Of a stretch of DNA of 64,000 nt, positions 5,389-51,235 are shown in pieces; position 1 is the first letter of the stretch, and each line of letters begins with the position of its first letter. The translations under genes were made by a program, and so were the position numbers. The notes under the pieces were generated by a model. That model was not told the origin of the DNA. It ran no database searches and worked only from the letters and a program-made list of their open reading frames with translations. The DNA is taken from the NCBI RefSeq assembly GCF_053078305.1, contig NZ_CP166879.1, one strand, 5' to 3'.

Positions 5389-5553
5389 TAGCGAGACCAG
5401 TGATTCAAGATGTTCACAGCTGTTTCAGCATACAATAAAAAATATATAAAAATCAACAAAATACACATAAATGCAGTATCAAGATGTTTCGCCTTGTTTC
5501 TGATGATATCATGTTAAATGTGTACCCCACTGTGTACCCAAAAGGCTGAAGAT

Positions 5554-6873
5554 ATGACTTTTACTATTACACAAGACAGACAATTGGCTTCATTGACCGT
5601 TACTAAAGAAGAAAAAGAAATCTTATTTGCTGTAAAATCTAAAGCTGGGGGAGGACTCTTTATACGCGTTCGTTATGGTAGCGACAATAAAAGCTGGATT
5701 TATCGTTATCGAATAGCTCAAAAGCCAGCTAAATTAACACTAGGTAGTTACCCTGCCATGGGATTAGCTCAAGCTCGTAAAGCTCATGCGGATGCAATTG
5801 AATTAGTAAGAAAAGGTATAGATCCTCGTCATATTAGAAAAAATGAAAAACAAAAAAATGAACAAATGATTATTTACTCTGAATTATGGAAAGATTGGAT
5901 AGAATTCAGAAAGACAAGTAAACCAATTAGCACCAGAACCCTTGCAGATTATGAAGGGACTTATCACCGCCACCTTGAAAAAGCATTAGGAAACCTTCGC
6001 ATTGACGAACTTACCAAAAGCGTTATTTTTGAACATCTCAGTAATGTAAGAAAAACCAGTTCTGAAGCAGTTCGTAAAGGATTAATTATTCTAAATATGA
6101 CTCTTGATCATGCCAACTTACAGGGTATGCTTGAGCATAACCCAGCACGACTGCTCAAACCAGCAATGTTTGGTGCATCGATGAATAAACCTCGCGAGCG
6201 ATGGCTTCCTGAGAATGAACTCCGGATGCTATGGAAGGCTTTGGATGATGCTACTGTTGGAGGAGGCTCCATTGCATCTGGTGGCTATGGAATTTCCTCT
6301 AGTGTGGTATTATCTCATTCTGTCGCAAATGCACTCCGTTTGATTATTTTCACAGGAGTGCGCCGCTCTGAAGCGGCACAAATGCGCTGGGATCAAATTA
6401 ATGGAGAGCGTTGGACCATACCAGCCACTAAAAATGGGAAAAGCCATATTGTTACTTTACATCCGTATATGCTTTCTTTAATAAAAACACAACGTGAATT
6501 CACTGAAGGTGCATATGTTTTTGGTTCTACTAGCAAACCTGGCTTTCCCATCACAAATGACGCTCTGACTCGCGCGTTAGAAAGGGTTCGCTCTAAGTAT
6601 CTAGCCGAACTTACTCCATTTTCTCCTCATGATCTGCGTAGAAGTGTTGCGACTGGATGCGCTGAATACCTTGATGCTCCAGAGCGCCTAATAGAGTTAC
6701 TGTTAAATCATGTACCCAAAGACCGTTTAATACGAACATATCAAGTCGGACAACAAGCTGAAAAATTAAAAAATTTATTTATAGAATGGGGGAATTTTAT
6801 TATGAATAACGTCATTACTGTGCAGCAGAATGCTCCGGATAATGTTATTCATATAAAATTTGGGAACAGATGA
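5554..6873 (+). CDS. int: Tyrosine recombinase, P4-type integrase
   Basis: ORF 5518..6873; AAGG RBS before ATG 5554; adjacent to att repeat; C-terminal catalytic region (…RRSEAAQMRWDQI…HDLRRSVAT…NH…) typical of phage integrases. Confidence 0.85.
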   Translation: MTFTITQDRQLASLTVTKEEKEILFAVKSKAGGGLFIRVRYGSDNKSWIYRYRIAQKPAKLTLGSYPAMGLAQARKAHADAIELVRKGIDPRHIRKNEKQKNEQMIIYSELWKDWIEFRKTSKPISTRTLADYEGTYHRHLEKALGNLRIDELTKSVIFEHLSNVRKTSSEAVRKGLIILNMTLDHANLQGMLEHNPARLLKPAMFGASMNKPRERWLPENELRMLWKALDDATVGGGSIASGGYGISSSVVLSHSVANALRLIIFTGVRRSEAAQMRWDQINGERWTIPATKNGKSHIVTLHPYMLSLIKTQREFTEGAYVFGSTSKPGFPITNDALTRALERVRSKYLAELTPFSPHDLRRSVATGCAEYLDAPERLIELLLNHVPKDRLIRTYQVGQQAEKLKNLFIEWGNFIMNNVITVQQNAPDNVIHIKFGNR

Positions 6874-6965
6874 TAAAAATACATGCATGGTCTGAGATAC
6901 CCTGTCTACTCGACCATGCAGTATGGTTCAACTAAATCAGTCACAACAAGAAATGATTAGTTTTA

Positions 6966-7814
6966 TTAGATATTGTATGGGATTATTTCTGGATAATACT
7001 TCGCAATGATGTCATTTAGCCGATCAACCAGTTCTGGTTTTCTGAACGTGATATGCGCGGAGCCCTTCTTAAAGTATCTGATGCTGAACATCTCATCTTC
7101 ATAGCAGGCTTTGCCCTGAACGGAGCGGATGTGATCATCCAGCCGAATAATGATATTTTCCCGGCTGTCGGGGATCGGTTTGCCGCTGAACAGGTGCAGC
7201 ATTCTTTCCAGGTCGGCAAGTCGATCTGCCTGTTGCCCGGTGATAAGATGCAATCCCCACCGGTCCCACCTCACCAGATTGTTGACGATAATTTTACTGC
7301 CAAATTTACAGGGGCAATTGGTTTTGTAATCCCAGCTCAGTCCCCTGAAGACGTTGATGACCCCACGCTCAAACACTTCATCCTTATTCTGGTGTAGCTG
7401 CTCAAACGTACTCAGTATATTCTCTTCACTGATTTCCGGAAAATTATCGTACTCCAGTGACCGGTACCATGTATCACGGGCCTGTGCATCCATTAAGGAA
7501 AGCATCCCTGAACGTTGCATCAGGTCACGCCAGATTTCACGGTCAAGGTTGCGGGTGATGGCTTTCATTGCCGTTTCAGGTTTCTCCATCAGCCAGCAAC
7601 CGCAGCGAAAATCCTGTTTCATGGCCCAGTCCGGAGCAGTTTTACCTCCAATACTTTCTGTCATTGCTGATATTTCAGCCAGTTGCCGGATAAGTGTGTC
7701 GATTTGCAGAAGTGTGCTCTTTCGTACAGCCAAAATGTGGCGGATACTGGTTGAGCAGATAACGTCCGTATGCCCGTTGACCACTTCCGGACGGGCGATT
7801 GTGATGCCTGACAT
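6966..7814 (-). CDS. Conserved island-associated hypothetical protein (possibly DUF4942-like)
   Basis: 282-aa ORF, same strand as the downstream CP4-like array; family recalled, not verified. Confidence 0.45.
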   Translation of the reverse strand: MSGITIARPEVVNGHTDVICSTSIRHILAVRKSTLLQIDTLIRQLAEISAMTESIGGKTAPDWAMKQDFRCGCWLMEKPETAMKAITRNLDREIWRDLMQRSGMLSLMDAQARDTWYRSLEYDNFPEISEENILSTFEQLHQNKDEVFERGVINVFRGLSWDYKTNCPCKFGSKIIVNNLVRWDRWGLHLITGQQADRLADLERMLHLFSGKPIPDSRENIIIRLDDHIRSVQGKACYEDEMFSIRYFKKGSAHITFRKPELVDRLNDIIAKYYPEIIPYNI

Positions 7815-50252: not shown

Positions 50253-50338
50253 ATCACAGATGGGATAACATCCCGGTTATCCCCTGTTTGTTCTGCTTCA
50301 GGTTGCCAGAGCTCCAGGAACACGAGGCAATCGGCAAA

Positions 50339-50935
50339 TTATGCGGCTTTTCCATTAACAGATTCGACCACAAGAACAACACCGTGTTTGTTTCGATCAG
50401 GATGTTCACTCCAGATTTCTGATTCAGGAATACTTTCCCCATCATAGCAGATCCGATCACCATCAAACGGATAATACCGTGCGGAATCTGTATCTAAGAT
50501 AAACACCTTAAGATTCGTTGAACGACGCGCTATATGCTGCCAGAGGGCTTTACCTCCTTCATATTGCTCGTTATCACTTAATAGTATAACGCCTGCTTTT
50601 GTGGCTATTGTTTCATAAACAAACGTAGCAAGGCTAACATCACGTACAGCGCCATCGACAACAATCCCTTCAATCTGAGCAACGTCCTGTTCTTCCCAGA
50701 ATTTCCGGACAACCCCCCCTTCAAGCTGTGAACGACGCTGAAGCTCCAGAGTGGCAACAACCTTATAGCGAATATCACCATCAATAACAGAAGGTGCAGC
50801 TTCGATTACCGCAGCGAACGGAGTCTTTGGATCCCAGATGATCTGGTAAAGCACACCCTGAATAGTTACTCCATCCAGTATCGAAAAACGACGAGCTACA
50901 GTAGCAGGGGAGTAAGACATTGGAATGACAGCCAT
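50339..50935 (-). CDS. Uncharacterised protein adjacent to thrW
   Basis: 198-aa ORF convergent with the 545-aa gene; no recognised motifs. Confidence 0.45.
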   Translation of the reverse strand: MAVIPMSYSPATVARRFSILDGVTIQGVLYQIIWDPKTPFAAVIEAAPSVIDGDIRYKVVATLELQRRSQLEGGVVRKFWEEQDVAQIEGIVVDGAVRDVSLATFVYETIATKAGVILLSDNEQYEGGKALWQHIARRSTNLKVFILDTDSARYYPFDGDRICYDGESIPESEIWSEHPDRNKHGVVLVVESVNGKAA

Positions 50936-51235
50936 TTTATGGCCTAAAATTTGAAAACATCAGTATCAATACTGACCTCATCAGTCTGAGCATATATTGA
51001 TAAAGTTTTTATGTTTACACTCAATAAATACCTTGCTAAACAACTAATAGCGATGTCTACATTGCCATTCGACATGCTTACAATTTTTGTCAACAAGAAA
51101 GTGAATTTATATCAACGGTAAGAAGTAAACACGAGGACACCAAAACCAAATGTATACACTTTTGTGCTTTGTGTCCCCTGTGTGTACCCAAATGACAAAC
51201 TGCAAGAAAATCTAGGCACACACTTATCTAACTTA

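Follow-up and report, generated by a model that had tools for sequence, protein, structure and literature searches.

Tandem motif doublets at both ends of a thrW-inserted island of Escherichia coli as probable arm-type sites of the island integrase

The stretch of DNA analyzed here, a 64,000-nucleotide segment of an Escherichia coli chromosome (contig NZ_CP166879.1 of assembly GCF_053078305.1; hereafter the window), contains an island of ~46 kb that is inserted at the tRNA gene thrW and bracketed at both ends by 56-bp direct repeats. Inside each end of the island lies a pair of short motifs in tandem, one pair upstream of the integrase gene (int) and the other near thrW. Most likely, the heterobivalent tyrosine integrase encoded by the island uses these two doublets as its arm-type binding sites. 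An earlier reading made from the letters of the window alone (the sequence-only reading) had put this forward as one of two explanations, and comparison with other elements argues for it on several counts: the motif is conserved amid diverged flanking DNA, it is exchanged in both arms of islands with other integrases, its positions are held constant, its identity correlates with the N-terminal domain of the integrase, and the layout is the same as that of the annotated attP arm repeats of phage P4.

Results

Two doublets of one motif

The exact motif TGTGTACCC is present three times in the 64 kb, at positions 5519, 5531, and 51181, and a copy with one mismatch, TGTGTCCCC, is found at 51170. 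All four copies are on the + strand and constitute two tandem doublets situated inside the island on either side of the 56-bp repeat, with periods of 12 bp next to int and 11 bp next to thrW, that is, direct repeats phased about one helical turn. The sequence-only reading had reported a shared motif at the two island ends, and both strings are present where it had placed them; its distance of about 50 nt from the thrW-proximal repeat can be refined, as the doublet ends 47 nt before the 56-bp repeat. The longest exact run common to both arms is the 12-nt TGTGTACCCAAA, at 5531 and 51181. Dinucleotide shuffling gave a common substring of 12 nt in 9 of 2000 trials, as did 11 of 2000 pairs of segments drawn at random from the window, and the match by itself is improbable (about 0.5%), not overwhelming. 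When one mismatch is allowed in the 9-mer, the window total of 12 equals the chance expectation, and the signal therefore resides in the exact copies, their tandem arrangement, and their placement. From the window alone, the observation of the doublets is only suggestive. A chance origin was rejected on the combined grounds that exact copies are found only in the arms, that a 12-mer is common to both at the low frequency obtained by shuffling, and that the pattern recurs in other elements (see below). Two additional candidate sites in the thrW-side arm, TGTATACAC (51151) and the inverted TGTGTGCCT (51214), were discarded, as each has two mismatches and neither is found in other genera; TGTATACAC differs between E. 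coli strains.

The motif is conserved where its surroundings are not

One genome per bacterial species was scanned for GTGTACCC located 45–70 nt from the 3′ half of thrW, which yielded matches in Dickeya oryzae, Pectobacterium brasiliense, and a Citrobacter. The thrW-side arm in these three genera is TGTGTACCCgagAGTGTACCC, ending exactly 47 nt before the tRNA-adjacent TTGATTT, and the DNA around it cannot be aligned with that of E. coli. Outside the tRNA-adjacent stretch, the only conserved thrW-side block among E. coli, Citrobacter, Pectobacterium, and Dickeya is TTGTGT(A)CCC..G.GTGTACCC, in which GTGTACCC is invariant across the four genera. The position orthologous to the variant first half-site of the window is occupied by TGTGTACCC in Citrobacter, Pectobacterium, and Dickeya. 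The same 21-mer, TGTGTACCCgagAGTGTACCC, is also located just upstream of a 78%-identical P. brasiliense integrase, beside a thrW fragment, and a 73%-identical Brenneria integrase has GAGTCCCCCaaAGTGTACCC at the equivalent upstream place. The first int-side half-site in Brenneria, GAGTCCCCC, is a C-variant that resembles the thrW-side TGTGTCCCC of E. coli. For the sequence-only reading, absence from related elements would have been a refutation; the motif is present in such elements of Citrobacter, Pectobacterium, Dickeya, and Brenneria.

Other thrW islands carry other motifs at the same positions

Islands with more distant integrases show the same arrangement with a different word. The 26-kb island at thrW in E. 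coli E308 (island B) encodes an integrase that is 68% identical to that of the window, and AAGTACGC occurs there as four exact copies in 49 kb, which form two doublets of 12-bp period, one just upstream of int and one 48 nt from the thrW repeat. The integrases of Salmonella and Klebsiella grimontii, which share class B with that of E308, likewise have AAGTACGC upstream of int; the far end of the Salmonella island is outside the fetched locus, and a third AAGTACGC in that locus is a singleton inside a coding region. Two 7-kb Aeromonas islands (integrase 61% identical) have GAGGGGTA doublets at both ends. In CP4-6 of K-12, whose integrase IntF is 25% identical, TTACTTACACCAGC(A/T)GTTACA is found at both ends; the motif has the form nnTTACA and constitutes a 12-bp-period doublet at nearly the same positions as in the other thrW elements.

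Distances were measured from the last base of CGCATTACGAAT, which is the anticodon-loop end of the repeat. In the four classes, int-side motifs start at +131 to +133 and at +143 to +145, and those on the thrW side at -110 and at -122, or -121 in the case of the window, with the second CP4-6 thrW-side half-site placed by eye. The arm motifs are thus conserved in position within 1–3 nt across four classes, and in the attP reconstituted from the window they would start 121 and 110 nt before and 131 and 143 nt after the anticodon-loop end. A broader proposition, to which we give slightly less than an even chance, is that thrW integrases down to 25% identity share one rigid intasome blueprint, in which, relative to the anticodon-loop end, the P sites are placed at about -122 and -110 and the P′ sites at about +132 and +144, and that each class of N-domain reads its own word of 8–9 bp.

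Motif class follows the integrase N-terminal domain

Two kinds of protein encoded by these islands could be expected to recognize the doublets, the integrase and a small AlpA-family helix-turn-helix protein. The class A integrases of the window, Pectobacterium, and Brenneria, all associated with TGTGTACCC-type doublets, are 76–84% identical over residues 1–100, and the N-domains of the two class B members compared are 86% identical. Between classes A and B, identity is 57–67% in the N-domain and 71–78% in the rest of the protein. The AlpA-like proteins within a motif class are only 31–45% identical. Judged by these comparisons, the motif class tracks the N-terminal arm-binding domain of the integrase rather than the AlpA-like protein. 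An integrase on a JGI metagenome contig (L022) combines an Aeromonas-type N-domain and an identical GAGGGGTA doublet with a different tRNA fragment sequence, which indicates that arm specificity and core target can vary separately.

The integrase gene and the ends of the island

The features of the two island ends are collected in Table 1. In the 56-bp repeat, the part of thrW that runs from the anticodon loop through the 3′ end is followed by 10 nt of downstream sequence; the copy at 5333-5388 is the island/chromosome junction adjoining int. Beyond the island, proA and proB are located to the right of thrW, and a fragment of a LysR-family gene lies left of 5216. The integrase gene is at the thrW-distal end and is read inward. 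Its product is composed of an N-terminal arm DNA-binding domain, a central domain, and a catalytic domain (Pfam PF13356, PF22022, and PF00589); the match to PF13356 (Arm-DNA-bind_3) covers residues 20-97 with an E value of 1.1e-18, and structural relatives of the N-domain in the PDB include 3JU0 and 3JTZ.

Table 1. Coordinates of the attachment repeats, candidate protein-binding sites, and associated genes in the window.
Feature	Position	Strand	Basis or remark
Distal attachment (att) direct repeat, 56 bp	5333-5388		Longest exact match between island ends
Exact IHF consensus match	5326-5338	-	Same place beside distal repeat
IHF-like site, int-side (P′) arm, AATCAACAAAATA	5451-5463	+	One mismatch to WATCAANNNNTTR; consensus match by eye
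TGTTTC-N4-TGTTTC direct repeat	5485-5500	+	Doublet finder; just upstream of GATATCAT box
GATATCAT box, putative -10 of int promoter	5505-5512	+	Conserved in E. coli, Pectobacterium
Candidate arm-type site P′1, TGTGTACCC	5519-5527	+	Conserved in Pectobacterium, Brenneria
Candidate arm-type site P′2, TGTGTACCC	5531-5539	+	12-bp period; ends 15 nt before int ATG
Integrase gene, 439 aa, P4/CP4 type	5554-6873	+	Pfam; RefSeq annotation of 99.8%-identical locus
AlpA-family helix-turn-helix gene, 75 aa	47699-47923	-	tblastn, 98.7% to annotated helix-turn-helix regulator, strain EC1515
Candidate arm-type site P1, variant TGTGTCCCC	51170-51178	+	11-bp period to P2
Candidate arm-type site P2, TGTGTACCC	51181-51189	+	Ends 47 nt before att repeat
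Exact IHF consensus AATCAATAAGTTA	51229-51241	-	Between P doublet and core
thrW-proximal att direct repeat, 56 bp	51236-51291		Exact match to 5333-5388
thrW, tRNA-Thr(CGU), integration target	51246-51321	-	ARAGORN; annotation of matching genomes

The sequence-only reading had the motif overlapping the start of the integrase gene. This holds for the longest possible open reading frame, which begins at an in-frame ATG at 5518 inside the first arm half-site and corresponds to a 451-aa gene-caller product (cluster P0001, 962 member sequences). That start was rejected, as neither homologue alignment nor RefSeq supports it; the N termini of homologues align with the ATG at 5554, which is also the start annotated by RefSeq in the 99.8%-identical genome. 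With the start at 5554, the int-side doublet is situated in the int leader/promoter, outside the coding sequence. A similar situation is encountered in K-12, where the annotated start of intF (466 aa; locus L009, NC_000913.3, 35022-35097, - strand) is upstream of the CP4-6 doublet, such that the first 25 codons would translate the arm sites. This suggests that intF is annotated 25 codons too long and that the internal ATG at ~35022 (MALSRQKF...), which aligns with other integrases, is the likelier start.

A simple sigma-70 scan of 5300-5700 found no consensus promoter, and the -10 assignment is accordingly drawn solely from the conserved GATATCAT box. In the TGTTTC direct repeat just upstream, the GTTTC blocks are partly conserved in the int-side arms of Pectobacterium, Brenneria, and island B; speculatively, this repeat might be bound by a directionality factor of the AlpA type, or it might serve int as a -35 region. 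The window has six exact matches to the IHF consensus WATCAANNNNTTR, two of which are at the left edges of the att repeat copies. The IHF-like site of the int-side arm lies in an AAAATCA block that is invariant in the P′ alignment, with the AAAATCAA block midway in that arm, and the equivalent of the latter is a perfect IHF consensus in Pectobacterium, island B, Salmonella, and Aeromonas. By consensus alone, the matches at 51229-51241 and 5451-5463 are candidate IHF sites between the core and the arm sites. The AlpA-family protein is 35% identical to Vis of P4 and is likely the recombination directionality factor/regulator of the island.

Discussion

Comparison with characterized integrases

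In the record of phage P4 (NC_001609), two tandem pairs of 12-bp "attP arm sequence repeats" are annotated, one (3942-3965) directly upstream of the int ATG at 3926 and the other (4151-4174) on the far side of the core at 4078-4097. P4 shares with the window the tandem 12-bp doublets of the same orientation on each side of the core, the placement of one of them directly between a GATATCAT box and the int start codon, an integrase of ~440 aa with an arm-binding N-domain, and a small Vis/AlpA-type helix-turn-helix protein. The two differ in the motif itself (TGGGGGCA in P4, TGTGTACCC in the window), in the integrases (24% identical), and in the target, as P4 uses a different site with an annotated core of 20 bp. 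The core-to-arm distances are ~82/94 and 115/127 nt in P4 as opposed to 110/121 and 131/143 nt in the window, and the P4 motif also recurs as single copies, in inverted orientation over the start codon and again within int, for which no counterpart was seen in the window. By this comparison, the window matches the attP architecture of P4 and differs from it in specificity. The P4 arm repeats reportedly go back to work by Pierson and Kahn in 1987. Int of P4 represses its own promoter by direct binding to DNA, and this promoter contains an IHF site (PMC2951348, PMC7286903).

IntF resembles the window integrase in its thrW-distal position beside a thrW fragment. Panis et al. (2010; PMC2951348) showed that IntF represses a PintF-gfp fusion spanning -145 to +71 by a factor of about 23, and by our coordinates the CP4-6 doublet is within this fragment. 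The IntF sites are unmapped in that study; a candidate doublet is located here at both CP4-6 ends. The IntS/TorI system of KplE1 similarly has its integrase promoter inside the recombination region and a self-repressing integrase (PMC2951348), although the integrase is a different one, is found at argW, and has four mapped P′ sites. Lambda Int also binds, through a separate N-terminal domain, a repeated motif in both attP arms that is unrelated to the core, with IHF sites between core and arms and a directionality factor (PMC2951348), as the present reading would have it for the window. Its sites number two plus three (P1, P2, and P′1-P′3) rather than the two plus two tight doublets of the window, its N-domain family differs from the PF13356 of the window integrase, as does its motif, and, unlike in lambda, int of the window reads away from the junction, with the result that its promoter is overlapped by the P′ sites. 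Int of mycobacteriophage L5, another tRNA-targeting integrase, has adjacent pairs of arm-type sites on both sides of the core, in an unrelated host, with an integrase of an unrelated subfamily, and with seven sites in all. Our search of the literature found no description of arm sites for thrW islands.

A model for excision and its control

In the proposed mechanism, the 56-bp repeats would recombine and the ends of the island would be joined to form attP, whose core would be flanked by two doublets of the same orientation, that of the thrW side in the P arm and that of the int side in the P′ arm. An integrase tetramer would contact the four half-sites through its four Arm-DNA-bind_3 N-domains and the core sites in thrW through its catalytic domains. 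The arms would be folded back by IHF-type bends, located at the consensus sites that separate core and doublets, and the AlpA-family protein would set the direction of the reaction. Bound integrase would also repress its own gene via the P′ doublet. This doublet is located between the putative -10 box and the ribosome-binding site and start of int, such that occupancy by the integrase should shut off int, and the int-side doublet probably also mediates integrase autorepression. As for the site of strand exchange, one boundary of the repeat coincides exactly with the anticodon loop, and the repeat has to restore the 3′ part of the tRNA, which suggests a crossover in the anticodon loop. Such a crossover would be in line with the sublocation classes that Williams is said to have described in 2002 for tRNA-integrating elements.

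Alternative explanations

Several observations weigh against assigning the doublets to the integrase. The joined attP (P arm, core, and P′ arm) had no match in viral contigs, metagenome contigs, or 5426 E. coli genomes, the last of which were searched with a synthetic 494-nt attP; with no contiguous attP found, either as an excised circle or as a same-type tandem, current mobility of the island is unproven. The first thrW-side half-site is degenerate, with an A to C change and a spacer that is 1 nt shorter. The IntF reporter fragment includes the core site in addition to the doublet, so that the repression is not mapped to the latter, and the assignment of the cognate AlpA of the Salmonella island is uncertain. 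Finally, sites of directionality factors are also typically direct repeats about one helical turn apart (PMC7498355). This last point speaks for an alternative that we consider improbable, in which the doublets bind the AlpA-family directionality factor/regulator and not the integrase, the int-side pair controlling int and both pairs shaping the excisive complex. Each island class examined encodes its own, different AlpA-like protein, and covariation alone is therefore not a full exclusion; in addition, AlpA of CP4-57 raises the expression of intA. However, the class B integrases are 86% identical in their N-domains and the AlpA-like proteins of that class only ~31%, and the sites are found in both arms, whereas directionality factors usually bind one. 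In P4, the annotation of the homologous repeats is that of attP arm repeats, PintF is repressed by plasmid-borne IntF, and no AlpA-type gene was noticed among the annotated genes of CP4-6, as judged by product names only.

Less probable still is the notion that the int-side doublet is an operator or promoter element of int and nothing else, with the thrW-side copy serving a separate regulatory role, for instance for the leftward gene that starts at 50935. The position of the int-side doublet between the conserved GATATCAT box and the start codon, the documented autorepression by the integrases IntF and P4 Int, and the location of the thrW-side doublet upstream of a minus-strand open reading frame (50339-50935) would all be accommodated. 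What the thrW-side doublet keeps in four integrase classes, however, is its distance to the att repeat and not to a neighboring gene, and in Aeromonas the last island gene points toward the tRNA, which leaves no leftward promoter to control. Operator and arm-site roles are moreover compatible, as they are for IntS of KplE1 and for P4 (PMC2951348). The second explanation in the sequence-only reading, that the thrW-side motif is a remnant of the upstream region of a second integrase gene since deleted, is in our estimate highly improbable and was rejected. Tandem elements do accumulate at thrW, and E308 has an integrase gene beyond the same P arm and att copy, but that neighboring integrase (IntB) has its own, different doublet. 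The window contains a single integrase-like coding region, as tblastn with four integrases matches only 5554-6870; the similarity of the two ends is confined to the motif, with about 25 nt of resemblance between the arms; and the doublet is only 47 nt away from the att repeat. The same two-ended pattern is seen in intact 7-kb Aeromonas islands with one integrase each.

Accretion and decay at thrW

The junction in E308 just mentioned is a hybrid (NZ_CP030281.1; locus L002 9690-10003, and L020), in which the class-B integrase and its own doublet come directly after a thrW-side arm and an att copy of class A. To the left of this junction is a decayed A-like element that contains phage and P4-primase remnants without IntA; as its left end is lost to decay, an intact tandem of A and B is undocumented in E308. 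In E. coli DETEC-P829, an 8-kb remnant island keeps an orphaned class-A thrW-side arm (locus L011 12640-12830 and 20870-20900), while its distal end has a different integrase truncated by IS3, and the distal att fragment matches ~29 nt of the repeat, namely its first 11 nt and the last 18 nt of thrW. Among 5426 complete E. coli genomes, the integrase end is found in ~195 and the thrW-side end in 269. Orphan arms and hybrid junctions account for this difference, and with them no lost integrase is needed in the window; such arms and junctions at thrW are explained as tandem accretion and decay.

Two further observations come from related islands. In Salmonella, CAAGTATGC, a near-copy of the class-B motif, is located ~50 nt left of the distal att fragment (locus L015 9740-9770), and it may be the decayed thrW-side arm of a former tandem neighbor. 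Strain EC1515, which has the same type of island as the window, carries within it a resistance region bounded by IS26 and IS1 (locus L001 17000-36000) with TEM-1, tet(M), an aadA1 pseudogene, estX, and a class 1 integron integrase, which makes the island a landing pad for resistance genes in some lineages.

Implications

The doublets are real but ordinary for this kind of mobile element, and the established picture of heterobivalent integrases is unchanged by them. Covariation of motif and integrase, and a geometry that stays fixed among thrW integrases of great divergence, make a tidy and possibly useful pattern, one that would not surprise a specialist. For the ~46-kb thrW island, the doublets fix the functional ends and name the cis elements for a test of mobility, and the analysis corrects the likely start of int from 5518 to 5554 and predicts autorepression of int. 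The positional rule, together with the match of N-domain and motif, provides a cheap means of locating the two ends of P4/CP4-type islands, and work on a recognition code could start from it. If the shared blueprint is true, arm specificity would let different islands stack at one tRNA gene and yet excise independently, an idea that the E308 hybrid junction, with its A-type P arm and B-type P′ arm, would fit. From the pairs of N-domain and motif class one could then read a recognition code for the Arm-DNA-bind_3 domain, of use in predicting island boundaries and in designing orthogonal integrases.

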